From positions 9,512 to 73,511 of the IMG/VR virus record IMGVR_UViG_3300016657_000022: a DNA stretch of 64,000 nucleotides; one strand, 5' to 3'. Of the stretch, positions 4,462 to 56,600 are shown in pieces. The DNA comes from a virus. Lineage: Duplodnaviria > Caudoviricetes. Made by a program: the position numbers and the translations under genes. Below the pieces are notes generated by a model that did no database searches, had not been told where the DNA came from, and saw only the letters and a list, made by a program, of their open reading frames with translations. Within the stretch, counting starts at the first letter, position 1; the number at the start of each line of letters is the position of its first letter.

Positions 4462-5401
4462 ACTCACCTTTCAGGGTTTTCCTGAATTGTATCCAGCCGG
4501 AAAGATTGCCGTGCAGGTGGGAGTTTTCCCACTCAGGTTGCCACGACAGGTTCTTGCCGTCGCCAGCGTGACGACTCATCATTGCATCCTTCTGGTCGTA
4601 CCAGTCGGGGGTGCATTGGTGCTCAGCAGGGCTGGCGTGAAGCGGCGTGCTGCCGATCAGACGATCAGCGAGCTTGCGGTCTTCCTCGAACGTGGTCTCA
4701 CGACCATCGTGGGTGAGGTAGGACACACGGGCACACCGGGCCGTCGAGATCAGCTTCAGGTGAGCGAGCTTCTCCTCGTAACGGGGTTCGTCACGGGTGA
4801 TGCGGTTCACCTTGCAGTGAGTATAGGCGTCGTTCCAGTCCTGTGCCCGGCTGGCGAAGGGCAGATGCCACATGCCACGCTGGAGCATCTGGACAGGAGC
4901 AGCAGCGATGCTCTCCTTGATGCACTTGGCCAGCTCGTGGATCTCCGGCTGGGCATCTGGGTGGATACGCAAGGCGTAGAAGTTGTTCCAGCGGCTGGAC
5001 GTGATGAGCGTGTTTATATGTGCCCACGGCTCAAGGATGCGGTTGCCGATCTGCTTGTGCAGGCCGATCCAGTAGAGGATCAGGGCAAAGCCGATGGCCA
5101 TCCACATGGCACCGAGCCAAGCCTTCTTGGCTAGCCAGAGCTTCCAGCCGGTGAGCTGGGCACCTGCCTGCATATTGGGCTTGTTGCTGCCCCAGTAGAT
5201 GGGCATCGCCGGATCACGGATGATGTTCTTGATGAGACGCATGATCGGGATGGCACGGGAGCTAGACGCATTCCGGCTGAAGTCCTTGTGGGTCATTAGC
5301 TCGGCATGGATGAAGTGAGGATAGCGAGCCATGACGGTCGCCACTTCCTTGCCGGTCTCCTGCGACTTGCTCCTGAGAATGATGGTTGCAGAGATAGTCA
5401 T
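4451..5401 (-). CDS. thyX: FAD-dependent thymidylate synthase ThyX
   Basis: YPHFIHAELMTHKDFSRNASSSRAIP, ARCARVSY, HASPAEHQ motifs; start set at MTISA. Confidence 0.9.
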   Translation of the reverse strand: MTISATIILRSKSQETGKEVATVMARYPHFIHAELMTHKDFSRNASSSRAIPIMRLIKNIIRDPAMPIYWGSNKPNMQAGAQLTGWKLWLAKKAWLGAMWMAIGFALILYWIGLHKQIGNRILEPWAHINTLITSSRWNNFYALRIHPDAQPEIHELAKCIKESIAAAPVQMLQRGMWHLPFASRAQDWNDAYTHCKVNRITRDEPRYEEKLAHLKLISTARCARVSYLTHDGRETTFEEDRKLADRLIGSTPLHASPAEHQCTPDWYDQKDAMMSRHAGDGKNLSWQPEWENSHLHGNLSGWIQFRKTLKGEYVN

Positions 5402-7034: not shown

Positions 7035-7304
7035 TTAGAGAACGTCCTTGAGCGTCTTCGACGCCGAGAACTTGACCGCCTTGCTTGCAGCGATGGTGAT
7101 CGCCGCGCCGGTGGCGGGATTGCGGCCCTCACGCTCGGGGCGGTCGTTGACCTTGAACTTGCCGAAGCCGTTGAGGCTGACTTCGTTGCCAGCGGCGAGG
7201 CTGGTCGTCAGGGCCGAGATCACAGCGTCCACGTTTTTCTTGGCATCAGCTTTCGAGGATCCGGTGATACCGGCAACGCTGTCGATCAGATCAGAGGTGT
7301 TCAT
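7035..7304 (-). CDS. hup: HU histone-like DNA-binding protein
   Basis: MNTSDLID...VSLNGFGKFKV..RPEREGRNPATG..ITIAASK.VKF. Confidence 0.95.
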   Translation of the reverse strand: MNTSDLIDSVAGITGSSKADAKKNVDAVISALTTSLAAGNEVSLNGFGKFKVNDRPEREGRNPATGAAITIAASKAVKFSASKTLKDVL

Positions 7305-7331
7305 CTTCGATTGTCCTTTCGGATTGGTTCA

Positions 7332-7353
7332 CAAACAAACCAAGAAAAGAACT
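7332..7353 (-). promoter_or_regulatory. candidate phage middle-promoter motif
   Basis: Plus-strand AACC(C)AAGAAAAGAACT, recurring at ~14259-14275 and (variant) ~22996-23016, each 25-55 nt upstream of a minus-strand unit. Confidence 0.35.
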
Positions 7354-7396
7354 ATCAGATATCTTGGGGGGTCGTAAACCCCCAAAACACGGGTTA

Positions 7397-8035
7397 TTAG
7401 TTCCTGTTACGACAAAATGGACCACAATCTTCGGTCCGGTGACACCCATCTTTAGAGCAGATGGGCTTGCTCGATTGGCGACCGTACATGGTCTCCGCCA
7501 GTGCTTTATTGTCCCTTGGGCTGGACATGCGAGCCTCCTGCGGACCGGCTTCCTGATCCTGATACTTACCCACGTAAAGGGCGTTCTCCTGAATGGTCTC
7601 GAAGATAACCTGACAAATGCCGGAACCAGCAGGAATGATGAGATCATCCATTCCGTGATAGAGCAGCTCGATGGTGAGGAAGCCATGCCAGCCGGGTTCG
7701 ATGTTGGTGGTCATGGAGGCGTCCAGACCCTTACGCGCCCATGTGGACTTGTTCAGCACACGTCCCATGAGGAACGTGGGCATGTTGAACTCCTCCATAC
7801 TGGAACCAAGGGCAAGGATGCCCTGCACATGACGTGCCGGACCATTGACCGGCTCGATCTGCACCATGGGGTGCAACGAGAGATTATGCTTGCCAGTGAA
7901 GTGAATGCTCTCGGCAATGCGGATGTCGTAACCGCACTCGGTCAGTCCGTAGCTGGTCACTGGACCTTGCACCTTCTCGGTGAGCATGTCCTTGATGGGG
8001 GCAGCACGAAGCAGCCCGGTGCGGTTGACGATCAT
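7397..8035 (-). CDS. dcd: dCTP deaminase
   Basis: SYGLTECGYDIR, NKSTWARKG, IEPGWHGFLTIEL, GSGICQVIF, Y.GKYQDQ. Confidence 0.9.
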   Translation of the reverse strand: MIVNRTGLLRAAPIKDMLTEKVQGPVTSYGLTECGYDIRIAESIHFTGKHNLSLHPMVQIEPVNGPARHVQGILALGSSMEEFNMPTFLMGRVLNKSTWARKGLDASMTTNIEPGWHGFLTIELLYHGMDDLIIPAGSGICQVIFETIQENALYVGKYQDQEAGPQEARMSSPRDNKALAETMYGRQSSKPICSKDGCHRTEDCGPFCRNRN

Positions 8036-8220
8036 TTCGAGGATTTCCTCTGCTTGCTGGCGAGCTTGTTGGCCTTCCGACGCTTCTGGACGGCCTTGCT
8101 CTTCTTCGGCTTGGTTCCCTTACGGGACTTGCCGTAGAGCTGGTTGATGAAGCTCAGCGGATCTCCGCTGGGCGAGGATGCAACTGCCTGCATGGCAGCG
8201 AGAACGGCTTCTCCGTACAT
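8032..8220 (-). CDS. small basic hypothetical protein
   Basis: 62-aa Lys-rich ORF with overlapping start/stop. Confidence 0.5.
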   Translation of the reverse strand: MYGEAVLAAMQAVASSPSGDPLSFINQLYGKSRKGTKPKKSKAVQKRRKANKLASKQRKSSK

Positions 8221-8221
8221 A

Positions 8222-9427
8222 TTAGCCTTTCAGGTTGATCCGAGTCCCGAATGGGATCGGGGTTTCCTTGTTGTCGATGGCGACCCAGATGGTCGGCACG
8301 TCAAACGGGAGGGGTTCCATAGGATCACAGTAGAGATCTGAGAAGATCACTGCTGCGGTGGGGCGAAGCTCGATCATCATCTCGCGAACGCACACCAGAC
8401 AGGTGCCACCACGACCGACGACCTTGACCTCCACGAAGTCGTCACCTTCCTTCAGAACGATGATGTTCTGGATTTGGGTGTCGAACTGCACGATGGTCAT
8501 CTTCTTGGGCTTGAGTTCATCCCAGACGTACTTGAGTTCGGAATTGAACCGAACCACCTGTGCGTCAGTGATGCTTCCACTCACGTCCTCGAAGTAGACA
8601 AGGTGATCCAACCTGCCTTCGTCTTCATACCGACTGGGCAGATAGATCATGTCCAGCATACGCCGGTTGGGCCTTGACCATGTGTAATCTTCCTCGATCA
8701 GATCTTGGAAGAAGCGTTGGAACTCCACTTCCCATGGGATCTTCGGCTGAAGGAACTGCTTCAGCACGTACTCGGTCTCACCGGGGATGTCCCCGGCCTG
8801 ACCTGAGAGGCGAGCCTGATGAGCAGCCGATACCACGGATGAGAGCACGTCCTGATTGGTGATCTTCTGCATCCCATCGGGGGAGTCGAGCATGTCGCCC
8901 TCCTCCTCTTCTTCTGGTTCCCCGTCCCACGGGTTGTTGCAGAGCAGCTCATCCAGATCCGATGGCAGCATGGCCATCAGTTTGTCGTAGATGTCCTCTT
9001 CCGAGGCTCGACCGTGATCGTCGAAGCTGTGGTCCATCCATGGGCGGGTGCCCACGAAGGAGTAGCCCTCACGCTGGAGGTCGTTGTTGATGCGGACATC
9101 GCAGGCGAAGTTCCACACCTTGGGATTTCGGCTGCCACACCGGATGATGTGCAGCCGAGCGTTGTGCCATAGCTCGTGGATGAGCACGGTACGCCTGACG
9201 GCGGGATCCAACCGGAGAAACCACTTCGGGTTCCAGTAGAAGGTCACGCCGTCAGTCGCAGCAGTCCGAACGTCCATGCTCCAGACGAACTGAAGATAGG
9301 ACATCAGCGGACCAAAAAACGCTGCACCGGGGTTCATGAACACCTGCGACTTCGTGATGTCCAACAGGCGTGTCATCTCCTGAAGGTTGAAATCGAACTC
9401 AGAAACGGGTTGACGGGTCTTGGACAA
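8222..9427 (-). CDS. metallopeptidase-like/vWA protein (DUF2201-type, N4 gp25-like)
   Basis: TAATDG, HELWH zincin motif, WN.ACD..IN, DVSGSI MIDAS, GRGGT, FSDLY. Confidence 0.85.
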   Translation of the reverse strand: MSKTRQPVSEFDFNLQEMTRLLDITKSQVFMNPGAAFFGPLMSYLQFVWSMDVRTAATDGVTFYWNPKWFLRLDPAVRRTVLIHELWHNARLHIIRCGSRNPKVWNFACDVRINNDLQREGYSFVGTRPWMDHSFDDHGRASEEDIYDKLMAMLPSDLDELLCNNPWDGEPEEEEEGDMLDSPDGMQKITNQDVLSSVVSAAHQARLSGQAGDIPGETEYVLKQFLQPKIPWEVEFQRFFQDLIEEDYTWSRPNRRMLDMIYLPSRYEDEGRLDHLVYFEDVSGSITDAQVVRFNSELKYVWDELKPKKMTIVQFDTQIQNIIVLKEGDDFVEVKVVGRGGTCLVCVREMMIELRPTAAVIFSDLYCDPMEPLPFDVPTIWVAIDNKETPIPFGTRINLKG

Positions 9428-9668
9428 TTGCTCTCTCCCATTGGAGACGGTGCGTGGTCTGGCACACCGTGCAGTAAAGATAGATGGTGATCCCCTCCAC
9501 TTCCAAGTCCCACTTGTGTGGGCCTGAGCATGGATTCCGAATGGGGTGGTTCACACCATCCAGTGCTTTCCGCGTGAGCAGACCGGCTCGTCGGAAGTCG
9601 TCTTCAGTCCACATGATGATGGACTTTTCCGCCAGATCAGGCGGAAATGACGGTTCCGGCTGCTGCAT
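9399..9668 (-). CDS. hypothetical protein
   Basis: 89-aa ORF with C..H...C..C residues, between the AAA and vWA genes. Confidence 0.45.
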   Translation of the reverse strand: MQQPEPSFPPDLAEKSIIMWTEDDFRRAGLLTRKALDGVNHPIRNPCSGPHKWDLEVEGITIYLYCTVCQTTHRLQWERAIVQDPSTRF

Positions 9669-10773
9669 TCGGGTTCAGGTACTTCGAGAGCTGGATCATC
9701 GCCTTGGCGAAGGCCGGGTGCTCCTGAAGTTCCGGGCGCTGGACCAGAGTGCCACGGAAGAAGAGAATGCGGAAGTCCAATGCGAAACGGTTCGCATAGG
9801 TGGCGAAAGCCCCGTAGTTCTTGTCGTCCACCAGCTCCATCAGGTGAGCGATGTTCGCCCACTGCTGGGCGTTTTCGGTGGCGATGGGGCAGTTCTCCGG
9901 GTCGGCGATCACGTCCTTGTAGGACACGAGCTTGTCGAAGCAGGCCGTGAAGTTCACGAAGTCCACTGCCACCCCTGCCGTGATGGTCCCAGCATAGGTG
10001 CTGGTCTCACCCTTGGCGATGGTGCCCTTGGGTTCGTTCTCGACATAGCTGTTCACGAAGTCCCATGTGCGGGGACAGCAGAACGTCTCCTCGTTGTGGT
10101 CGGCCCGGAAGTCGAACAGGCGAGTCGGATAGCGGCTCAGATAGGCCACGACACGCTTGTCCCAGTTCCGTGCAAGGGCCACGTCGAGCATGAACTCGCC
10201 ATGGTCGATGACCAGCTTGAAGTGGGATAGACGGCTCTGCATGGCCGTCGAGAGGTTGTTGGTGATCGCCCGGTCAGTGGACAGGTTGCCTGCTGCACCG
10301 ATGGCCACATGGCCGTGCAGGTGGGCCTGACCGACCATGCGATCCAGCACCAGCTTGTACGCTGCTGCCTGCACGCTCTTCGGGGCCGAGTTGAACTCGT
10401 CCAAGAACAGGAGCCAGCCGATATAGCCTTCCGGCGTCGTCTGCCCTTCGATGGGGAAGATGTCGAACGGGGCGAAGCGAGCACGGCGATTGCCGTCACC
10501 ATCGGTGTAGAACTCAGGCAGGCCGGAAAGATCTTCCGGGGCCGAGGTGCTCAGCCGGTGATCGACTAGCTTGAGGCCCAGCTTCTTGGCAACCTGAGCG
10601 AAGATGCTCGACTTGCCGATGCCGGGGCTGCCCTTGACCATGGGCACCACACCGGCACGAATGGCCTTCTCGATCTTGATGGCAAGCTGCCGGGGTGTGA
10701 CTGTGTAGAGGCTCTCGACCGTGACGCCATCGTCAAGTTGGGTCGGAGCAGGATTGAGGACTGCACCGCTCAT
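9637..10773 (-). CDS. MoxR-like AAA+ ATPase (N4 gp24-like)
   Basis: Walker A GSPGIGKS, Walker B LLFLDEFN, AAGN, sensor CPRTW. Confidence 0.88.
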   Translation of the reverse strand: MSGAVLNPAPTQLDDGVTVESLYTVTPRQLAIKIEKAIRAGVVPMVKGSPGIGKSSIFAQVAKKLGLKLVDHRLSTSAPEDLSGLPEFYTDGDGNRRARFAPFDIFPIEGQTTPEGYIGWLLFLDEFNSAPKSVQAAAYKLVLDRMVGQAHLHGHVAIGAAGNLSTDRAITNNLSTAMQSRLSHFKLVIDHGEFMLDVALARNWDKRVVAYLSRYPTRLFDFRADHNEETFCCPRTWDFVNSYVENEPKGTIAKGETSTYAGTITAGVAVDFVNFTACFDKLVSYKDVIADPENCPIATENAQQWANIAHLMELVDDKNYGAFATYANRFALDFRILFFRGTLVQRPELQEHPAFAKAMIQLSKYLNPNAAAGTVISA

Positions 10774-12913: not shown

Positions 12914-13510
12914 TCAGCCGAAAGGGTTCTTGTCGCCCATCAGCATCATGAGCATGAGCGGGTTCATGGCACCGGCTGCACCGCCGCCGAGACCGCCTGA
13001 CAGCATGAGCATCGGGAGCATGTCCTCGAAGTTGCCCTTGTCGCCGGTCATCATGCTCATCATCATGAGCTGGCCCATGTCCATGGAGCCACCTTCCGAA
13101 CCGCCGCCGAACAGGTTCGTGAACGACTTGATGATCGTCACGCCCTTCTCGATGCCCATCATGTTGACCTTGGTGGGCAGGAAGCGGGAGCTGTGGCCTT
13201 GCACGTTGAGCGTGCGGAGCGAACCGGACTCGGTGACTTCCTGAATGAAGCCGTATGCCTTCTTCTCGCTGACGAGAATGTCGCCGGTCTTCACCTGCGA
13301 TACAGGCGTCAGCATGGCGAACGCCGGGATGTCCATTCCGAAGAAGTCGAGCGGGTTCTTGCTCAGGCCCTCACCATCGAACGTGACGATGCCGGTGCCG
13401 GTCTTGATCCCGGTCAGGCCGGTCTGGAGGTCGTAGCTCACGTTTTCGATGGGCTGGATCATGGCCGACATTGCGGTGGCCATCTTGCTCTTCATATCCT
13501 TGAACATCAT
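12914..13510 (-). CDS. hypothetical protein, Met/Gly-rich C-terminus
   Basis: 198-aa ORF with RBS AGGAG and strong codon bias. Confidence 0.7.
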   Translation of the reverse strand: MMFKDMKSKMATAMSAMIQPIENVSYDLQTGLTGIKTGTGIVTFDGEGLSKNPLDFFGMDIPAFAMLTPVSQVKTGDILVSEKKAYGFIQEVTESGSLRTLNVQGHSSRFLPTKVNMMGIEKGVTIIKSFTNLFGGGSEGGSMDMGQLMMMSMMTGDKGNFEDMLPMLMLSGGLGGGAAGAMNPLMLMMLMGDKNPFG

Positions 13511-13560
13511 GCTTCTCCTGCGTCATTGATGGGTCGGAATTGACCCAAGGAAAGGGGAAT

Positions 13561-13980
13561 AAACTGAGTGTGCTGCTGGACGCCGTTGTTCCCATTAAGC
13601 CAGTCTCGTCTGACTCACACACCCCATGCCCAGCCGGTCCCTGACGGTTTGCAAGGATCCTTGACCAGACAGGCATGGCCTCGGGTCCGTCGAACGGTTT
13701 CCCTCGGTCTAACTGTAAAGGGTGGCAGGGAACTCTAACCTGCGTCACGTCCTCCCGCTTTTTAGCACGGGACACCCTAGCACGGACAGCTATTATGGGC
13801 CGCTTACGGTTTCGCCCATCGGGTGGTCGCCGTCTGTCCATGTCTCTATTTGGTTCCCCCGCCCAGCTTCTGCCTCGGGGTTCTGGCGCGTAAACACATC
13901 TGGGCTTGCGGCTTCGACAGAGCTTCCCTGTCTAGGCAGTCCTGCATTAACGTCTTAGTCCACCAGCATCACCGAGTTGA
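13561..13980 (-). ncRNA. unidentified large structured RNA (~420 nt)
   Basis: Gene-free interval; 5'/3' closing helix (AACUCGGUGAUGCUGGUGGAC / GUCCAGCAGCACACUCAGUU) and internal helices such as CAUGGACAG/CUGUCCGUG, GCCCAG/CUGGGC, CCAUGCC/GGCAUGG, GCAGG/CCUGC; GNRA loops on the minus strand. Confidence 0.5.
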
Positions 13981-14033
13981 ACTGCGGTGGGATAGCCTCG
14001 GGGAGACGGGAAGAGGACATTACTGATCTGGTA

Positions 14034-14150
14034 TGGCAGCCGTGGATGGACTCGAACCACCGACTATCTGGCCCGTCATCCTTAGTGAAGGCGCCTTCAC
14101 GCACAGGATGCTGCTAGGGTTTCGTGCTCTACCGACTGAGCTACACGGCT
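14034..14150 (-). tRNA. atypical tRNA-like RNA (117 nt): acceptor, D and T arms and CCA intact, anticodon arm replaced by an extended hairpin; no assignable anticodon
   Basis: AGCCGUG/CACGGCU acceptor, U8A9, GCUC-AGUCGGUA-GAGC D arm, GGUGG-UUCGAGU-CCAUC T arm, G73, encoded CCA; 63 nt between D and T arms. Confidence 0.75.
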
Positions 14151-14347: not shown

Positions 14348-14920
14348 TTACGCCGTGCAGGTGATGTTTTTGGTGGCGGTCTTGGCACCATCCTGCGAGG
14401 TCGCAGTGATGACCGCCGAGCCGTTGGCGACGCGAGTCACCAGACCCGTGCTCGACACCGTGGCAACGGCGAGGTTGCTGCTGGTGTAGGTGACGGTGCC
14501 ATTGCTGGCATTGGCCGGGGTCTTCGTGATGGCGAGCTGCACGGTGGGCGAAGCCACGGTCAGCGTGCTCGTGCCGGTGGGCGTGATGGCAATGCCCGTC
14601 AGCGCCACATAGTCGGTGTCGATATTGAGGGTGATGCCCCCCATATCGGTGATGTTGTCCGGGAACAGGAGTTCACCGGGAACGGCAACACCGTCCGACG
14701 CACGGGTGTGGTAGAGAGCATCACGGACGTGATGCCAGATGACGTGGCTCTCAGCCAACTGACCATCGCCCGGAATGAGCGGGTTGTTGCCGAGAGGATC
14801 GGCCAGCTCGTCATGCTTGAACGTGCCGATCTTGTTGGAACCAGCGGGAAGAGCGTCCCCGTTGGACTGGACAGTCACCACCTTGGTGGTGTTGTTATAG
14901 GCAATCTGATACTCAGCCAT
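14348..14920 (-). CDS. Ig-like (Big_2) domain virion decoration protein (N4 gp17-like position)
   Basis: C-terminal TGIAITP...TVQL...TPANASNGTVTYTSSNLAVATVSSTGLVT..ANGSAVITATSQDG. Confidence 0.8.
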   Translation of the reverse strand: MAEYQIAYNNTTKVVTVQSNGDALPAGSNKIGTFKHDELADPLGNNPLIPGDGQLAESHVIWHHVRDALYHTRASDGVAVPGELLFPDNITDMGGITLNIDTDYVALTGIAITPTGTSTLTVASPTVQLAITKTPANASNGTVTYTSSNLAVATVSSTGLVTRVANGSAVITATSQDGAKTATKNITCTA

Positions 14921-15442: not shown

Positions 15443-16244
15443 TTATGAAAGGGCGTAGTCCGTGGCCATGATGTCCTGCCAGAGTTCAGGATCCAGCTTA
15501 CCGATTTCCACCTTGCGACCGATGATCTGGGAGATCAGGTCGCTGAGCAGCTCGCTCTTGGCGATCAGCATCAGTTGACGTGCGTACTGGATACGCAGAT
15601 CATTGGCGTAGTTCGGATGGCAACGGAAACAGTCATGCACACTCAGAACCTTGAATGGCTTGTTGGGCAGACTCTCAAGCAGCTCCCAGATGACGGCGGG
15701 ATCGACATGTCCCAGATTATCCGCGTTGAGTACGTCGATGATACGCGCCGACAGATACCCTGTGCGGTTGTAATGGCCCCAGAGAGCCACGACGAGCTTG
15801 TCATTGTCGGTCCCGGTGTTCTGACCGTAGGTTGCTTCACCGTCTGAGAGCAGATCATACAGGGCATTGACCTGTGTGACATTATAGTCACACCGGCGTC
15901 CCATCTCCCGGCAGATCATGCCGTCGATGGAGTGGATGCTGTTCGCACCCAGAGACCTGCCCTCTTCCATCGGCTGGTTCACACGATGGAACACATCGAA
16001 GGGCTGGTTCAGGAAATGCACGGTCTCCTTGATGGAGTCCATGACCTTCACTTTGACGTGGAAGTTGTCGGGTAGCACCCAGTCATGGCTGAGTGCCTCG
16101 TTGTTCCAGAACGTGAGCATGGCCTCGTTGAGTTCCCATGCACCCGGTGCAGCTTCGCCCATGACGCCGTAGAACACGTCGAGCAGGGCACCCTCACCGA
16201 AGATACGCTTGGGCACTGCCTTGCTGGAATACAGGGCCGTCATA
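15443..16244 (-). CDS. RNA polymerase II subunit 2 (N4 gp16-like), exon 2
   Basis: MTALYSS motif B remainder, ANSIHSIDG, motif C VLSVHDCF; spliced to exon 1 gives 408 aa. Confidence 0.9.
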
Positions 16245-17063
16245 CAATTCTTCAACTTGGTTCGTTAATCCAAGCCAGCAGCATTACCTGCATCTCCACA
16301 TTGCTGTGGAGTTGGGACTATATCATACCACACTGAGGTTTATCAGTGGGTCCGGGCGCTTCGATAGCACTTGCTACCTACTCTACTAGATTCAGCTTAT
16401 GCTGCCGTTCGATAGTCTCTGCACCTTCCGATATTCCAAGATAGCCTCACACATCTCATAAAGATGCTCAATGTGAAGCTCGCCTTTGGCACGGTTTACG
16501 CACCAAGCAAGCCATTGAACATTATCCGGTGTGTAGCCTTTTGACGGATCTTTTTGATCCAAGGACAGGCACAGCGGATGCTCCTTTTCGAGATTAAGGG
16601 GAGCACCTGTCAAAGCACATGAACGCTTTTGTTTGATGAACAACTCGTAGAGTTGATCGGCAGTCACCACAGGGGGTTCTTTGCCTAGCTTTTTGCATCT
16701 ACCACGGGCGTCAACCAGTCGTTGGCGTATTGCTGACATCAGCAAACGATCTTCTTCTGGAATTGCCTTGAGCTTGCCTGACCCTCGATAACCGGGACGG
16801 GCTTTACGCCATTCAGCCGCTCGCTGTGCATTGCACTGCTTGCAGTAAGAATGGTGTGTCCTATGGGCATTTTTGAAACTGCTTGAGGACTTAGCTCTGG
16901 TGAATTGGTCAATGTTTTTGACCTCACCACATTGGTTGCATTTCTTGGTTTGCATATACCACCTAACTGGAAGTGATATATGCATATCGGCTTGGCTCAT
17001 GATTGTCCACTAGGGATGTTCCATGAGTTCACCCGGTTTTAAGGCCACCATGCTTATTGGTTA
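16245..17063 (-). mobile_element. group I intron (IA2-like), 819 nt
   Basis: P1 GGCCAU/GUGGCC with U-G at the 5' splice site; P3 CCGGGU/GCCCGG; P4 CUCAUG/CAUGAG; P7 CAGAGACUA...AUAUAGUCC; P9 CUCCACA-GCAA-UGUGGAG; terminal G; exon join restores the frame. Confidence 0.92.
16392..16955 (-). CDS. intron-encoded HNH-like homing endonuclease with N-terminal Zn finger
   Basis: CNQCGE...YCKQC; CALTG...SLDQKDPSKGYTPDNVQWLAWCVNRAKG; 3' end overlaps the intron core. Confidence 0.85.
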   Translation of the reverse strand: MQTKKCNQCGEVKNIDQFTRAKSSSSFKNAHRTHHSYCKQCNAQRAAEWRKARPGYRGSGKLKAIPEEDRLLMSAIRQRLVDARGRCKKLGKEPPVVTADQLYELFIKQKRSCALTGAPLNLEKEHPLCLSLDQKDPSKGYTPDNVQWLAWCVNRAKGELHIEHLYEMCEAILEYRKVQRLSNGSIS

Positions 17064-47617: not shown

Positions 47618-47654
47618 ATATGACGGCACCTCAACCATGCGAGGAAGGTGCCTC

Positions 47655-50600
47655 ATGGCTAGTCGTTATCAGGACTTGCTGAATATCTATACGCAGTCCA
47701 ATCCCATTCTGAATACGAAGCTGTTTGACACGTCTGACATGGCTCAGACCAAGGCAGCGGAGGTAGAACGGGCATCGGCAGCCAAGCAGGCAGAAGCCAA
47801 TGGTAGCCCGGACGGCTACAACCTCGCTACCATGCGTGCCACTGGTTCCGGCGTAGCATCGGCAAAGCCGATTGATCGTGACTATGTGACGCTCTCCCCT
47901 TTCCAATTTGAGCTGAAGTACGGTGCTGACACCCGTGCCCAGTATGCTGCTGCTGAAGCGTCCGGCGAGTCGGCACGTCGTGCAGGCACTCAGGGAACCC
48001 GTGACGGCTATCAGATCGCCGGGGACTCGGCCAATTCGGCTCTGATGGGCTTTGCCAATGCCTTTGGTGGCATCGGTGCTCTCGCCACTGGCCTTGTCAG
48101 CGATGATGCCGGTGCATGGGTCAGCACCAAGTTGGGCCAGCTCAACCAGTTCAGTCAGAGCCTTCAGTCTCGTGAGCTGAACGCCAGCCGGGCCGCCTAC
48201 GGTTCCCAGAACGAGCTGGATGCTGCCGACAACAAGGCTGAGGCTGCACAGGTCACGAAGGACTACGGCAAGATTGCCGGTGGCACCTACCGTTTCCTGA
48301 ACGACGCCTATGACAGTTTGGGCAATGCCCTCAAGGATCCGAACATGGCAGCCGATACGGTTGCCTCCGGTGTCGGCTCGTTGTTTGCTGGTGGTCCTCT
48401 GTCGAAGGGTCTTCGGGCCATTGGCACGGCTACCATCGGTCGGTTGGGTGCTTCGGAGGCCATTGCTGCTGCTGCCAGCCGTGCATCGACGGGGCGGTTC
48501 CTCGGTACGAGTGACCGTCTGCTCCTGAGCACGGCTGAACATGCTCCGATGACGGCTGCCATTGGTCTGATGGAAGGTGGTGGTGCCTACCAGCAGACGG
48601 TAGACCAGTCTTATCAGGAACTGATTGCTCAGGGTGTCGCCCCGGAAGAGGCCGCACGTCGGGCCAATGCTGCCGGTCTGGAAGCTGCTGCCATCCAGAC
48701 GCCGATTGCTGCCGCCACTGGCCGACTGGTCAGCAAGTTCGAGGGGCATCCCACCCGAGTCGGATCGCTGTCCAGTGCTGCTGGCAACATGATCCGTGAG
48801 ACGGTGGAGGAAACTGCCCAGTCTGCTGCCGGTCAGGTGGCCCAGAATGTGGGTATGCGTGACAACGTGAACCCCAATCAGGATCTGCTGGAAGGCGTCG
48901 GTGAACAGGCTGCCCTTGGTGGTCTGGGTGGCCTTGGTTCCGCTGGGCTTGCTCAGGCTCCGGGTGTCACTTTCCGTGCTTCGGTGGAGACGGCCAAGCT
49001 GCCGTTTAAGGCTCTCGGTGCTGGCCTGAAGTATCAGGCTGATCGAGTCCGGGCCAACAACCAGAAGGTGCAGGACCAGCTCCTGTCGGGTCTCTACGAT
49101 CAGGCCGATCAGGCTGTGCCCGATGCACAGGCCGAGATGGAACAGGTCATCGCCAATGCCAACCCGTCTGTGTCCGGGGATCTCGGTCGCTGGGCTGGTG
49201 AGCAGGTGAACCGTCTCCAGCAGTCGAAGGCTATTCAGGCTGCTGCCCAGACGGTCATGGCCAAGGGCGGTGCCGTCAAAGACAAGCTGGCGTCCTACTT
49301 CCAAGTCCGTGATGGCGTGCAGGAAATGCAGGCTGCTCAGGATGAGGCCACCCCGGCTGGTGCCGAGAACACGACCATGCAGAGCATCAAGGATGCTGCG
49401 GTCAATGTCACCCAGTCTCAGGCTGTTCAGGACTCGCTCGCCAAGGGCAAGTTGATGGTCAAGTCGGCTGCTTCGGTGGTCAATGCCAATGTGCGTGCTG
49501 CCCTCAGTCGTATGACGGCCACCCAGAACAACACCCCCGACAGTGAGGGTGCTGCGAACCTGAACGATCAGGCTCAGGTGATGGCTGGTATTGCTGCCGA
49601 CGCGCCGGAATTGGTGGATACCAAGGCTGCCGAGCAGGTTCTGTATCATGACAGTCAGGGCACCATTGCCCTGAGTGCTCCTCAGCGTAATGCCCTGCGT
49701 ACCGCTGTGGCAGCGGGTAAGGCTGCCCAGTCGGGATCGGAACTGGCTTCGACCTTTGGTCTAGCTGACGCTGATGCGGTGAGCCGTCAGGTTCTGACGG
49801 ATAAGCCCAAGGAAGGCAGCAACCTTTCGCTGAATGGCCATCTTCAGGGGATTGCTTCGGCGTACAACTCGGGTGATCTCCAGCTCGCTTCCCAGCGTCT
49901 GACTGACCTTCGCCGCTTTGCTCAGCACCTGAGCAACAAGGTGGTCTCGTTCAATGATGCTCTGGCCGGGGGGAACACGAACGAGAATAACGCAGTCTCG
50001 TTCCCTGCACTGGTGAACGGTCGCTTCATCCCCGACAGCGGAAAGACCTACTTCCAGCCCCGGAGTGCTCGCTCCGTCCAGTTGGCTCAAGAGGTCGCCG
50101 TACAGGCCCGAACGGTCGCTGACGCGGTGAACAACCTGAGTGACGCTTTCCCCGATCTGGGCATCGAACATATTGAGCCTGCCGTTCTTGACGCCTCTCT
50201 GTCTGGAAAGGCGGAAACCGTTGCGAATGAATACCGCAATGGTCAGCGTACCGTTCCCAACAGCGAGACGAAGGGTGTCCAATCCGAGACGGCGGAACCT
50301 GCACAGGCATCTGAGGTCGCCGAACCGGAAGCTGCACCTGTAGAAGAACAGGCTGCAACTGACTCGCAGCTTAACGCAGATCAGATCACAAGTGAACAGT
50401 CTGATGCACCCGTCGCAAATGAAGCACAGGTGCAAGACGAACCGACTGTAACTTCAGAGGAAGTGCCTTCGGCTGAACCAGTGGAAGAGACTGCTCCCGC
50501 TGCGAAGACGGAACAGGCTGCACCGGAAGCTGCGTCGGAGACTGCTCCTGCTGAGGCTCCTCGCTTTGGTGGGACCGAAAACCGTATTAGCAAGGCATTC

Positions 50601-53600
50601 CGTGCCGCCAAGACGGCTACTAGCCGGATCATGGACAGTGACTCACCGCTCCAGACGATCCGTGATGCCTTCAAAAGTAAGGAAGCTCTGGAAGAACTGA
50701 TCGGCTCGAAGCTGAACCGTGGCTATTCGGTCGAGGTTTCCAAGGCGTACACCAACTTCCTGAAGCTGGGTGATGGTCTAAAGACCATCATGGAAGAGCG
50801 TCTTCAGTCTGCACTGAAGGCGAAGCTCGACCGTGGGCTGAAGCCGGAAGATATGGTGAACTTCCTTGAGGGTGGTGCTCTCAATGCTGTGATCCAGAAC
50901 GAGGACGGTTCGTACTCGTATGATCCCAAGCTGCTAGAGGCTGCTACTCTGGCCGGTCTTCAGTGGTATCTGAAGATGAACAAGAACGGCACCCAGCTCG
51001 ACGATAACGATATTCGTCAGATGTATGGCCTGTCGGACACCGTTCCTCTGCCGGATGGTCTGGCCGCCATGCTCAGTGAAGGTATGGGCGACACGGAAGT
51101 GTCTCGCTCGCTTGCTGCCGAGATCGGTCGTTTCTGGGGCATGGACATCAATCCGAATGCTCCGGCCAACTATGCCCAGTCTGCTCTTGAGGGCATGGCC
51201 AAGGAACTCATCGAGTCGATGGTTGCCGGTGGCCTGATCCAAGAGACGCAGGTGGACACCAAGGATGTCCTGAACGTCCCGCACGTCAGCCGGTACAGCC
51301 CGGTCCTGACGGAAGAGGTGGCCCGTGCTGATGGCTCGACCTACACCAAGCGTAAGGGTCCGGCTCTGGATGAGACGACTCTGGCTGGTCTTCGCCAGTT
51401 CCCGGCTGCCATCGAGAAGGCTGCCCTGATCGACGGTGAGGAAGTCAACTACGTCGGGGAGAAGCCGGGAGACCGCAACTCGAAGACCCAGCTTCGCAAT
51501 CCGATGGTGGAGACGACTGACCAGCAGCGTCAGGTCATTGCCAAAGAACAGGCAACCGAGCACCGTATGAACATGCCCTTCGTGGGTATGCTGACCCGTC
51601 TTGGTGAGGGCCTCACCATGCGTCTGTTCGGTGGTGGGGACACCAACGGTCCCCTGAACGTCAATGATCGTCGTTCACTGGAAGGCCGTAACCTGACGAT
51701 GCAGTCGGCTTTCCGGTCGATCTTCAATCTGATGGCTGAAGTCCAGAACCGCTCGGATCTGGATAAGGTGGACCCGGCTGAGATGCCGGTGTTCTTCGAC
51801 TACGCCTACACGGTCGTGAACCGTCTCCAGATGCTGGGCAAGGACAACCCGCAGAGCAACAAGCTCATGCGTGAAGCCGTCCTACCGACGTGGAAGGAGA
51901 TGGACCTCACTAACCCGGATATGCGTCTGGCCTTTTCCATGGGTCTGGCTCAGGCACTGGGCATCAAGGTTCATCAGAATAGCCAGCAGCAGACGCTGAA
52001 GGATTTGACCGAGAAGCTCGCTCAGTTCCCGAAGACGTTGGAGCTGCTCCGTGATGATGGGGAGCTGTCGGAAGCCGATGTCGATACGATGAAGGCTGAA
52101 GGTGTGGACAGCCCTGTGGCTCTGCACGCTCTGATGGAATACGCCCGTCTGACCGACACTGCCCCGACTGACCGTAAGGCATTCCGTTCGGCTCTCTATT
52201 TCGAGGCTGACGGCGTGACGAACGGTGTGGTCAACGCGATGTCGCTGTTCAGCTCGAAGGATTTTACTGACACTTGGTTGTCGAACATCGAGCGTGGTGG
52301 TCTCTGGATCGGTGAGCAGGCGGCATCGCTGTTCAATCTCCGTAGCCGTGGCAACGGAAACGAGCTGGATCTCTATGGTGTGGCGGCGTCGAACACCTCC
52401 AACTACCTGACCGATCTGCTTCGCCGGAATGCTTCGGACCCGGCTGTGTCGGCCAAGCTCACGATGGTGAATGCCTTCCTTGTCCAGTACCTGAAGGGCG
52501 TGGACATGGATGGGGACAAGCTCCTCCTGAAGCGTGACGTAGTGAAGAACCCGCTGACGATCACCGTCTATGGTTCGGGCACCAATGGCATTGCCGGGAA
52601 CCTGATGGATGAGGCCCTGTCCAAGCTGTACTCGGATCTGTCGGCTGCTGCTGGCCGGATGGCTGGTGACAAGAACCTGTCGCTGGCCGAGGCGATGTTC
52701 CCTGAGATGAGCAAGGCTGAGGCAACCCAGTCGCTCAAGGGGCTGGAAGCCTTGCTCTCGCAGCTCACTGGTTCCACGCTGGGCGTGTCGGAGAAGAGCC
52801 TCTACAACGAGGAGAACTCCAATCCCAATGTGACCATTGCTGATCCGGTCGAGTTCACTCTGTCGTCTGCCCAGAAGCAAGCGATGCAGAAGAACATCCT
52901 GCACGCTTTTGCTGAACCGATGGTGCAGGGCATTACCCAAACTGTGGGTGCTGACCTCATCGATAGCATGGGCACGATCAAGACCCAGACGCAGGCTTGG
53001 TCTCTGGTCGGACAGTTCATGTTCCAGAACGAGTACGAGAAGGCCCTCGCTGCAAAGCGTAAGGCCAACCCGAACATGAACTCGTATGAGCTTCTGTCCC
53101 AATCTGAGACAGACGCCATCATGAAGAAGATCTCGGCTGACCTGCCCAGCTTTGGGACCGGCACCCAGAACTTCATGTTCGGGATGAAGCAGCGTCTCGA
53201 TCTGCCCTTCATGACCAGTAAGAATGGCAAGCCTCTGAAGCTGGAGTTCAGCCGCTCGCTGACCGACAACATGCAGACTCCAGCGTTCGGCTATATGCCG
53301 GGCGATGCTGGTGTCTCCGGCCAGCCGGGACTGACCATCGGTTCGGGTGACGGACAGGCTGTCCAGAACATCATCATGAACCCGGAGACTCCTGCCGAAC
53401 GTCTTCAGATCTTCGACGGTATCCACTCGTCTGTAGCTGACATGAGCTTGATGGGCCGGGTGTCCAATCAGGGCGTGTACGACTCGTGGGCCAATAACCC
53501 GATGCGTAGTCTGGCCGAGGCGTTCGACACCTTCGTCAAGCAGGTGGACCTGTCCGGTCTGAATGAGCGTCAGCGTACTGCCCTGTTCCGTGCCATCTCT

Positions 53601-56600
53601 GGCCGTCAGGGTATCGACGCTGACACCAATACGCTGATGAGCCTGCTCCGTCGTGAGGCTGCCACGGGTCTGAACAAGGCCAAGGGCATTGATGAGCGTC
53701 AGGCTGTGCTGAAGGTGCTTCAGCTCTCGGTGGACCAGATGGCTGGTGCTGCCACCCCCTACACGCGGGAAGGCATCATCCTCTCTGGTTCACACGCGGA
53801 GCGTGCAGCCCAGCTCAACATCCTGAAGTCTCAGATGGCCAAAGGAGCGGTTCTCAGGGCCACCCAGAGCGAGTCTGCTCCGCAGACGGGCAATGTGGCC
53901 AAGGAAGCCTCAAAGTCTTCTATGGCAGCCCGTGGGGCAGATGTGAAGCTCTTCACGAAGGGCATGGATCGCTACATCACCAAGCTGACTTCGGACCCGA
54001 CGACTCGTGCCCTGCTCCGGGATGTGACTCGTTCGGGTAAGGTCGATGCCTACAAGGTCTGGACCGGCAGCCGTGAGGAGCTGATCCAGCACGCCGCTGA
54101 TATGGGGATCTCGATCCCTGCTGATCGTCAGAAGACGTTCATGGGCTTCACCGATCCGGTGTCGAAGCAGCTCTTCGTTGTGAACGGCAACGCTGAGACC
54201 ATGCTCCATGAGCTGATCCACGCTGCTACCTATGAGACGGTGGCTGCCCACTATGCTGGTGAGAGCGTTGCTTCTGAAGCGGCTGCTGCCATCGAGCGTA
54301 TCGAGCAACTCATGGCCCAGTTCCGTGAGGCTGGCCTTGATGGCGATGCCTACCAGAATGCTTTGGATGAGATGGATCGTCAGGCTGACGCCGGGAACCA
54401 AGCCGCAGAACTAAACGAGTTCATGGCATGGGCACTCAGCAATCAGGATCTGGCCGAGCAGCTCAAGGGCACTCAGGTCGAGAACCGTTATCTGCTGCTG
54501 GCGAAGAAGGCAGTGCAGGCCCTCAAGGCTCTGCTCTGGGGTGGCAAGCGTTCGGCTGCCGTGAAGGATGATGTGTTCACGAACCTCCGGTTCAACACGA
54601 ACATCATCATGCGTGCCGGTCAGTTGTCGGACATGGCCCGTCAGGGTCTGCTGTTCCACGATCCCAGCTTCGGCGACAACCAGCGTGTCTCGGATCTGCT
54701 TGGCAACATCAAGGCCAAAGTCTCCGACTTCGTTGGGGAGGATGCTGTTCGTCGTGTGGTCAACTCGGCACAGGCTCGCCAGAGCCTTGCCAATGGTGCC
54801 CGCATCATGAAGGCGTTCACTGAAGCTGGCTTCGATATGACGAAGCAAGAGCAGATGGCCTTCATGCACATGGTTGGCATCATGGGTACTGCCGCCGATC
54901 TGGACGCTAACTCGACGGCCCGGATGCAGGACATTTACACCCATGCCATCAAGAACCTGAGCTTGGGCGACTTCCTCCAGAACCCCGGTGAAGATGACCC
55001 GGCAGACAACTATCAGGCCAACCGGAAGCTGTCGCTTCTGGCGGGCAAGTTTGCTGCTCGTGAAGATACTTTGGATCGTTCGTCGATCCTGCCTGCCTTC
55101 GTGGCACTGGCCCAGACGAATGATGAGTTCCGGCAGATCCTGTCCAAGATGGATATGCCCAAGGGCCAGTACGAAGCATGGAACTCGGTCGATGGCATTC
55201 TCGACAACCTCGGTGACATCGCCATGGATACTGTGGGCCGGGCTGTGTCTGGTGAAGGTGTCCGGTCTAAAAATGCCCAGCAGGCTCTGGACAATCTGAC
55301 CATGCAGATGCTGGAGACCAACGAAGACGCTGAGTGGTTCATCGAGCGGTTCACGAAGCCTGTTGGCTCGTTCACTGACCGGGTGAATGACGGCCTGACC
55401 AACCTGTTCCAGAAGGCAGGCGAGGGTGCCCAGAACCTTGTGACCAAGGCAAAGAAGGATCCGAACGCCAAGGTTAAGATTGCTCTGGCCCAGACCCTTC
55501 AGACGGTGACGGGTATGCTCCATGAGCAGACTGGGCAGGAGGCATCCATGTCCCTGATGTCGGCTGCCAATCAGTCGAATGGGATTTGGAAGCCCTTCTA
55601 CGATCTGCTCAAGGATCTGATCGGTCGCACGGCTGAGAATGCTGGCGTCTATGATCTCATCAAGCTGGCTCGTTACCATGTATCCAGCCTGCGTCAGCAG
55701 TATGTCGAGAACCTGCCGAACATCATCAACTCGAAGTTCAGCACTCCTCTGACTGCCGAGCAGCAGGGGCATATGCACCGTGGGCTTGCCCAGACGGATC
55801 TCGCATCTATGTTGGTGGGCAACAAGATCGAGGATGTGCTTCGTTGGGTGAAGTCGGCTTCGGCCCGTCAGAGCAAGATCAACGAACTGGCTGATACCAT
55901 TCGTGGTCTGGCCCCCGATCAGGCAAAGCTGATGCTGGCCAAGTCGGATCAGCTCGCTGGCTGGATGGTCTCGAAGTCCACTGGTTCCAATCTGCTCCGC
56001 AACGCGGATGCCATTGCTCATCTGTTGGGTGAGGGTGTTCAGGTTGCTGATCCGACGCCGGAACTGGTGCAAGCCATCGACCACTACGTGTCGATGAAGG
56101 CTCTGGACATGCAGCCGACGAAGACCCGCAACGCTCTGGAGGTTCTGGCCGGGAAGGAGTCCGATGGTCTCAACTTCGTCTTGAACCTGCTGCGTGGTCA
56201 GCGGATGATCGACGATACGAAGGCTGACGGCAATGCCCGGTTTAACCACTACAAGGGCTTCATGACTGCTGCCCCTGCTGATGGTGTGAGCCTGATCGTT
56301 GCCCATGACAATGAGGCTGCCAGCCTGCTGGAGAAGAGCTACGTCCGTGTTGGTGCCTTCAAGGGTTCGGAGAAGGATCCTTCTGGTAAGGGTCGTTCCT
56401 ACTGGATGGCCCCGGTGTCGGGTAAGGCTCCCTACTCGCAGGGCATTGCCCAGAACGTGCAGCAGACGGTTGGTGGTGTGGATCACGCCTCGGGCTTCAC
56501 TCAGGGCCTGACTGGTGGCGTCATCACTGATCCGAAGCTGGTGGCTCGTATCGCCAAGGCGGGAACCAGTGAGACGAATGGGCAGGCTCTGCTCCCGGTC

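Follow-up and report, generated by a model that had tools for sequence, protein, structure and literature searches.

To our knowledge, RNAs of several hundred nucleotides with a complex fold are rare; about a dozen bacterial and phage classes are known, and ribozymes, riboswitch-like sensors and unexpected RNA-only assemblies account for nearly all of those that have been solved. Bacterial RNase P RNA resembles the RNA described here in its pseudoknotted invariant core, variable periphery, T-loop modules and tRNA gene neighbours; the consensus used for comparison in this work consists of CR-I (GAGGAAAGUCC), CR-V (GGCUUA) and the long-range P4 pseudoknot. The permuted (two-piece, alpha-type) tmRNAs (RF04321 and RF01849) share with our RNA the location in the same genomic island, H-type pseudoknots, the word UUCGAC and T-loop hairpins. 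GOLLD (RF01998) and ROOL (RF03087) are likewise large multi-domain RNAs of phages and prophages. Their usual place is next to tRNA genes; they lack a partner protein gene, and their peripheral domains are variable. GOLLD and ROOL form oligomers (PMC12286853). In a loose sense it joins these two as a large ornate phage RNA beside tRNAs. It differs from them in its smaller size (~450 nt, with a 260-nt mini form), in its predicted core, composed of a leader double pseudoknot and an H-type pseudoknot, and in being carried by N4-like podophages.

The stretch of DNA analysed (the window, 64,000 nt) makes up most of a complete virus record of 73.5 kb. The phage is N4-like (Schitoviridae-type). Among named phages it is closest to those of Rhizobium and Sinorhizobium, with an RNAPII identity of only 57-61%, and the hosts of the N4-like podophages bearing the RNA are probably Alphaproteobacteria. 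A MucR/Ros-like ORF (7663-8199) in one of the related contigs listed below (L011) also hints at an alphaproteobacterial host. The landmarks of the window used in the description are the following.

47637-57983: 3448-aa ORF, putative virion RNA polymerase (vRNAP) by its size and the N4-like context
15443-16255, minus strand: N4 RNAPII subunit
14348-14920: Ig-domain gene, which bounds the 837-nt gap
14037..14150, minus strand: tRNA-shaped gene (tRNA mimic) with acceptor, D and T arms and an encoded CCA; Rfam tRNA score 42.9 bits
13510..12914, minus strand: p198, a 198-aa protein gene downstream of the RNA
9637-10773, minus strand: gp24-like ATPase

The RNA is situated in the 837-nt minus-strand gap between the Ig-domain gene and p198. 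In the cultured relatives RHph_X3_15 and ort11 the equivalent gap is just 70-270 nt. The protein p198 belongs to no Pfam or PHROG family; relatives that are 31-47% identical to it occur in unrelated large phages of Vibrio, Ralstonia, Rhizobium and Acinetobacter. The original prediction had placed an unidentified, large structured RNA at 13561-13980. The block is real, but the RNA begins further upstream, at ~14018, and we hold, with a probability of roughly 0.6, that the segment 14018..13572 of the minus strand (~447 nt) is the gene of a stable, stand-alone non-coding RNA whose family had not been catalogued before.

Rfam 15 was searched at gathering score with the whole window, and at E<=10 with a 1.1-kb segment and with the isolated 471-nt stretch. 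Only the tRNA mimic and noise were obtained, so that the RNA matched nothing at E<=10 even when it was presented in isolation. Specifically, there was no match at E<=10 to the models of tmRNA (1.1 kb and 471 nt), RNase P (RF00010/RF00011) or GOLLD and ROOL (RF01998/RF03087). The Intron_gpI model, which is not very sensitive, gave no match either, and the element is intergenic with no split gene flanking it. The absence of a match to any catalogued family indicates a new RNA family, novelty being measured here against Rfam 15; a published catalogue listing 10,006 candidate viral RNAs (PMC10690425) lies outside this comparison. The folding energy of the block was not better than that of shuffled sequences on either strand (z -0.34 and +0.52), and therefore the case for structure must rest on comparison with relatives.

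Homologs were found at the syntenic site in four other N4-like phage contigs, and all members are placed after the Ig-like gene and before the gp24-like ATPase. They are listed here together with one possible partial relative.

L001: 73-kb IMG/VR contig, found via the flanking 198-aa protein
L058: JGI metagenome contig, found by gapped-pattern scan; ATPase 79% identical, same gene order, synteny confirmed
L012: 260-nt mini form, found with an nhmmer profile (E 5e-4)
L011: divergent form, found with a structural descriptor and then with model R2 (74 bits, on L062, the same contig)
L072: possible module-only relative with weak R1/R2 matches, consisting of the S1/S2 pseudoknot module alone

All five members come from uncultured phages, and three of them are fairly close to one another. 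Between the window and L001, blocks of 48, 22, 13 and 11 nt of the RNA are 100% identical, against 79-81% identity of the flanking proteins; the blocks are separated by diverged stretches and by insertions of 28-150 nt, each with its own closing stem. In IMG/VR, exact words of 18 and 21 nt matched only in the contig of L001. A gapped 24-base pattern derived from three conserved words was then run on IMG/VR, JGI metagenomes and GTDB genomes. In IMG/VR it recovered L001, L012 and one chance match (L054), in the JGI metagenomes L058 and chance matches (L055-L057), and in one genome per GTDB species no copy, the single match (L059) being due to chance; the chance matches were all rejected by model R1. 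A second R1 match, at G000 8524-8618 in the genome of the phage itself, falls within a 615-aa ORF and was also attributed to chance. A descriptor of the Y, PK-A and H2 elements described below, applied to 139 loci, recovered all five members and five looser matches (L033, L088, L090, L109 and L133), which were judged by inspection to be chance. No copy was detected by blastn ('distant') in 50,697 GenBank phages, and no further full member was found with models R1 and R2 among ~125 other N4-like loci; this type of phage can therefore do without the RNA. The closest ATPase homologs (P0001, P0002 and P0004-P0013) show 68-96% identity, and the about ten contigs of this close clade probably hold more copies of the RNA.

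Comparison of the five members led to a model in which a conserved core of ~230 nt consists of a leader double pseudoknot, an H-type pseudoknot (S1/S2), a hairpin (H7) and a closing helix (P1). A constrained fold of the RNAs of the window and L012 gave a coherent overall architecture. The elements of the core are, from the 5' end:

14014..14018, minus strand: 5' strand of helix Y (GUCCU), partner at 13943-13939
14009..14013, minus strand: 5' strand of PK-A (CUUCC), contiguous with Y; partner GGAAG in the H2 loop (13927-13923)
13958..13967, minus strand: 5' strand of P1 (GCUGGUGGAC), 9/10 positions pairing with 13581-13572
13947..13954, minus strand: GACGUUAA, invariant in all five members and unpaired in the model
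13939..13943, minus strand: 3' strand of helix Y (AGGAC), the five bases next to the invariant GACGUUAA(UGC) on its 3' side
13916..13932, minus strand: hairpin H2 (GACAG/CUGUC), whose loop holds the 3' strand of PK-A; 3/5 pairs compensatory
13856..13905, minus strand: H-type pseudoknot S1/S2
13905-13900 / 13866-13861, minus strand: S1 (GCCCAG/CUGGGC), 4/6 pairs compensatory, 100% paired
13880-13877 / 13859-13856, minus strand: S2 (CCCC/GGGG; CCAC/GUGG in L012)
13851..13857, minus strand: word GGAACCA, conserved in the window, L001, L058 and L012
13588..13616, minus strand: hairpin H7 (GAGUCAG-ACGAGA-CUGGCUU), followed by the conserved UUAAUGGGAAC
13572..13581, minus strand: 3' strand of P1 (GUCCAGCAGC)

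In all five members the leader 10-mer is made up of the Y and PK-A strands and pairs contiguously, first with the segment just behind GACGUUAA and then with the loop of the hairpin that comes next. Helix Y is GUCCU/AGGAC in the window, GUGCU/AGCAC in L001 and L058, UUGGC/GUCAA in L012 and AUGCU/GGCAU in L011; PK-A is CUUCC/GGAAG in the window, L001 and L058, CUCGC/GCGAG in L012 and CCCGU/GCGGG in L011. The leader resembles xrRNA-type pseudoknots (exoribonuclease-resistant or 5'-end-sequestering folds) in that its first 10 nt are buried in two contiguous helices threading into a downstream hairpin loop. This is a likeness of topology alone, with no sequence relation. The S1/S2 pseudoknot, with the conserved loop words CAGAA and GAGGCAGAAG, is followed by GGAACCA in the window, L001, L058 and L012 and is absent in L011. 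S1 occurs as GCCCAG/CUGGGC, GCCUAG/CUAGGU and GCUCGU/ACGAGC. Invariant unpaired words (GACGUUAA, AGAACC, GGAACCA and UUAAUGGG) surround the junctions. H7 sits within the 48-nt block that is 100% identical in L001; its counterpart in L058 is GAGUCUUA/UAAGACUC with pairing kept, followed by UUAAUGGGUAC, and L012 has UUUUAGGGAUU. A further helix, 'X' (UUCCCGUC with GGCGGGGG), gave way to PK-A and S2, which are backed by L012 and L011.

In the module-only contig L072, which is more distant (ATPase 53% identical), the S1/S2 module (4689-4752) stands right after a tRNA. There S1 covaries (GCCUGG/CCAGGC), and the strands of S2 are apparently swapped, with GGGG within the loop and CCCC after S1.

Covariation was evaluated on two alignments. 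In the four-sequence alignment A4, covering helices H2, S1 and S2, pairing over the 17 pairs was 95.6% and 8 pairs were compensatory, a result reached by 0/500 shuffles. The five-sequence alignment A6 covers the 5' half, extended upstream and with L011 added. Its 25 pairs in 5 helices were paired in 94.8% of the cells, changes on both sides were seen in 14/25 pairs (including 4/5 pairs of Y), and 0/500 shuffles reached any of the four measures, although a shuffle count obtained from five related sequences is not a probability. When the 3' partners were slid by 1-3 columns, pairing fell to 33-45%. These controls, together with the variety of pair types, make chance pairing unlikely, and the compensatory changes in 14/25 pairs indicate that the fold is under selection. 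Several helices contain G-U pairs that are compatible with the minus strand alone; these pairs and the orientation of the genes show that the minus strand had been assigned correctly, though not on the grounds originally given, because GNRA loops do not fix the strand.

The closing helix P1 was found in all five members. It comprises 10 positions (9 pairs and 1 mismatch) instead of the ~20 bp predicted originally, and has an 8-bp version, CACCGGGU/GUCCGGUG, in L012. One clear compensatory event (GGAC/GUCC versus GGUC/GACC in L058) was observed, and a crude window-shuffle test gave a weak result, helices of such length being common by chance. P1 is thus probable rather than proven. Its support is modest, and in principle the two halves, 5' and 3', might belong to different RNAs.

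The periphery (D3, D4, D6 and a T-loop hairpin) is absent in L012 and exceeds 350 nt in L001. Its elements in the window are:

13970..13989, minus strand: variable hairpin CACCGCAG-UUCAA-CUCGGUG with a T-loop-like pentaloop; a different hairpin takes its place in L001
13781..13842, minus strand: D3, variable long hairpin (CAUGGACAG/CUGUCCGUG, nested UGGGC/GCCCA)
13720..13777, minus strand: D4, three-way junction with outer helix GGGUG/CACCC, which is also present in L058 and L011
13772-13753, minus strand: D4a (UCCCG/CGGGA); UCCUG/CAGGA in L058, a compensatory change
13743-13725, minus strand: D4b (GCAGG/CCUGC), enclosed in D4
13679..13705, minus strand: conserved hairpin module GGG-AAA-CCG-UUCGA-CGG-A-CCC with a T-loop-like pentaloop; 22 nt identical in L001
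13624..13678, minus strand: D6, variable domain closed by CCAUGCC/GGCAUGG; CCAUGAAUA/UAUUCAUGG in L001, compensatory

Both the window and L058 have D3 as a 9-bp helix, which in L058 reads CAGCACUGC/GCAGUGCUG with 7/9 positions changed and all paired; at this site L001 has a branched domain with the closing helix AAUUGG/CCAAUU. The helices proposed originally (H2, S1, D3, D4a, D4b and D6) were thus each located where they had been drawn, and they go beyond chance: covariation of H2 and S1 is seen in 4-5 homologs, and D3, D4a/b and D6 change yet pair. Two pseudoknots had been missed, one formed by the leader (Y and PK-A) with the H2 loop and the other by S2 with the S1 loop.

The peripheral domains are often tRNA-like. 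Inside the large RNA of L001 there is a tRNA-shaped insert (L001:3490-3600) with a 7-bp acceptor stem (CGAGACG/CGUCUCG) and a T arm (GGAAG-UUCGACU-CUUCC), followed by G and CCA. The UUCGA hairpin GGAAACCGUUCGACGGACC is located within the RNA in the window and L001 and ~130 nt downstream of it in L058 (4648-4666), where the copy has AGG/CCU instead of GGG/CCC; its position outside the RNA in L058 marks it as a movable module. Downstream of the RNA, L058 and L001 share a further word, UCGUGGAU[C/G]GGAGCUAUUCA. Perfect palindromes occur at two hairpin tips of the minus strand, CAAGGAUCCUUG in D6 (13651-13662) and GUGAAGGCGCCUUCAC in the tRNA mimic (14085-14100). Judging from their sequence, the self-complementary loops (GAUC and GCGC) could in principle mediate dimer contacts; the palindromic tips are not conserved in the homologs.

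In the tRNA mimic of the window the 17-nt anticodon arm gives way to an irregular hairpin of 59 nt, and ARAGORN finds nothing there. The mimic is separated from the leader of the RNA by 18 nt, and co-transcription of the two in the window is plausible. The mimic falls outside the conserved RNA family, and the homologs of the large RNA lack it at this position. A tRNA-like gene is not a constant neighbour of the RNA: the L058 RNA starts ~15 nt after the stop codon of an ORF, and L012 has no tRNA. The contents of the island vary by phage and include tRNAs (in L058, L001 and others), odd tRNA mimics, permuted tmRNA (in L024 and L011, with Rfam tmRNA scores of 77-106 bits) and hammerhead-like motifs.

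In the sister N4-like phage L024, a permuted alpha-type tmRNA at 7117-7526 (RF04321 90.8 bits, RF01849 76.9 bits) has a type III hammerhead-like motif (CUGAUGAG...CGAAAC) right behind it, which scores 26.8 bits, less than the Rfam cut-off, and could cut the 3' end of the tmRNA. L011 has a 1.9-kb non-coding island, where the divergent copy of the RNA is accompanied by three further elements (8265-8310; 9663-10045), namely a sequence that looks by eye like a minimal hammerhead, a tRNA-like minihelix at ~9110-9150 and a permuted tmRNA scoring 106 bits. A second odd tRNA-like element of L001 (2995-3075), upstream of its RNA, has D and T arms and CCA and no 5' acceptor strand. Neither of the two L001 tRNA-like elements was called by ARAGORN or Rfam.

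Faint RNase P-like words had been mentioned in the original prediction as too weak for a call. The words CAGAACCC and GGCUUA do occur in the window, but the likeness did not hold up in the homologs: CCAAAUAG is specific to the window, CUGGCUU pairs locally in H7, L012 lacks GGCUUA, and the conserved regions of RNase P (the P4 strands and CR-I to CR-V) are not conserved among the members. A P4 helix formed by AAGCCCAG with CUGGCUU was dropped, as both strands pair locally and covary, AAGCCCAG with CUGGGC. The topology also differs from that of RNase P, S1/S2 being local and a long-range P4 being absent.

Permuted tmRNAs in the same island of L024 and L011 made a divergent tmRNA worth testing. 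The segment GACCGAG-N8-UUCGACGG resembles the 5' end of a tmRNA. A matching 3' strand that continues into a T arm and CCA does not exist in both the window and L001, and no acceptor partner of GACCGAG/GACCAAG proved to be conserved. Downstream of the pseudoknot, the reading frames of the window, L001 and L058 agree in neither length nor sequence; no frame is conserved that could encode a tag with a hydrophobic/Ala-rich C-terminus, and ARAGORN called no tmRNA. The RNA thus differs from a permuted tmRNA in lacking the acceptor stem, the T arm, the CCA domain, a conserved tag ORF and a score with the models.

How the RNA acts was considered in the light of several readings. The buried 5' end, the invariant unpaired words at the junctions and the hypervariable periphery form the pattern of an RNA acting through its fold (a ribozyme, or a ligand- or protein-binding core) rather than of an antisense RNA. 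A new ribozyme, excising itself from the island transcript or processing tRNA-like or tmRNA precursors in analogy with RNase P, would fit this small invariant pseudoknotted core, with its unpaired invariant nucleotides and hypervariable surroundings, which is typical ribozyme architecture. It would also fit an island rich in RNAs that need end-processing, where sister phages have hammerhead-like motifs, and the tRNA-shaped insert within the L001 RNA. Nevertheless we consider it unlikely, because no Rfam ribozyme model matched at E<=10, the homologs do not share the regions conserved in RNase P (P4 strands, CR-I/CR-V) and no cleavage-site signature could be defined. That the RNA is catalytic in any manner appears, from its sequence, rather unlikely. 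A wider class, catalytic or self-assembling, is doubtful as well; here the core would be an active site for tRNA-like or tmRNA transcripts or a site capturing host enzymes directed at tRNA, with exchangeable, tRNA-shaped modules at the periphery acting as substrates or handles. Control of p198 by a cis-acting leader that is either riboswitch-like or protein-binding would explain why the RNA is directly upstream of this gene in the window and L001 and why the p198 homolog of L024 likewise has ~500 nt of non-coding sequence ahead of it. The downstream genes differ in L058, L012 and L011, where p198 is absent, which argues against a cis leader; moreover, ~200 nt of unrelated sequence separate the RNA from the start codon in L001, and no expression platform overlaps the ribosome-binding site. 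Such a leader is therefore very unlikely.

The presence of permuted tmRNA at the same site in sister phages, the tmRNA-like word UUCGACGG, the T-loop-like hairpins and the pseudoknots could also be accounted for by a very divergent tmRNA, or by a functionless, decayed or rearranged tRNA/tmRNA remnant in a recombination-prone island. This is highly improbable. A relic would hardly have blocks that are 100% identical next to proteins that are ~80% identical, or the 14/25 pairs with compensatory changes; a divergent tmRNA is contradicted by the lack of an acceptor/T-arm/CCA domain, of a conserved tag frame and of any Rfam tmRNA score, and by L011, which carries a real tmRNA beside this RNA. The last alternative was that the segment codes for protein or acts at the level of DNA, as hairpin promoters or an origin. 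N4 virion RNA polymerase recognises DNA hairpin promoters, and a 156-aa ORF (13371..13841) overlaps the block. However, no open frame is kept across the five homologs and the ORF has no Pfam match, in accordance with the claim that the block is gene-free; the insertions and deletions of 28-150 nt are closed by stems, and long-range pseudoknot covariation with G-U pairs is unexpected for promoter hairpins. A coding or DNA-level function is consequently extremely improbable. The covariation, the null result with Rfam and the missing coding signature support the view that the block specifies a large structured non-coding RNA matching no known family. Homology, synteny, base-paired architecture, absence of a coding signal and absence from Rfam are direct observations.

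For the stand-alone RNA, transcription, processing, action in trans and a link to tRNA or translation can be proposed as follows. The RNA would be transcribed together with the same-strand genes of the middle region; a scan for sigma-70 promoters and intrinsic terminators, with N4-type promoters outside its scope, found neither. It would then be cut out of the transcript; in the window this is probably a task of the enzymes responsible for 3' trimming of the tRNA mimic, which lies 18 nt upstream. This trimming could create the 5' end of the RNA; the other phages do not share the adjacency. The tucked-in 5' end would give protection. The RNA would act in trans through its three-dimensional fold and not by coding or antisense pairing, and its target would most likely be a component of tRNA processing or translation, reached by binding or by an RNA-processing reaction. 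Action on tRNA processing or translation is proposed in view of the neighbourhood (the other tenants of the island), the tRNA-shaped insert of L001 and the T-loop-like hairpins, which stand at non-homologous positions; we put it forward tentatively, as a possibility short of an even chance.

The RNA is known so far from few uncultured phages. It should nonetheless be tractable, since there is a natural minimal version of 260 nt (L012), the invariant unpaired nucleotides are clear and two pseudoknots are supported by covariation. In the island where it lies, tRNAs, anticodon-less tRNA mimics, tmRNA and hammerheads are swapped among related phages, and the RNA may therefore throw light on the non-decoding tRNA-related RNAs of phages.
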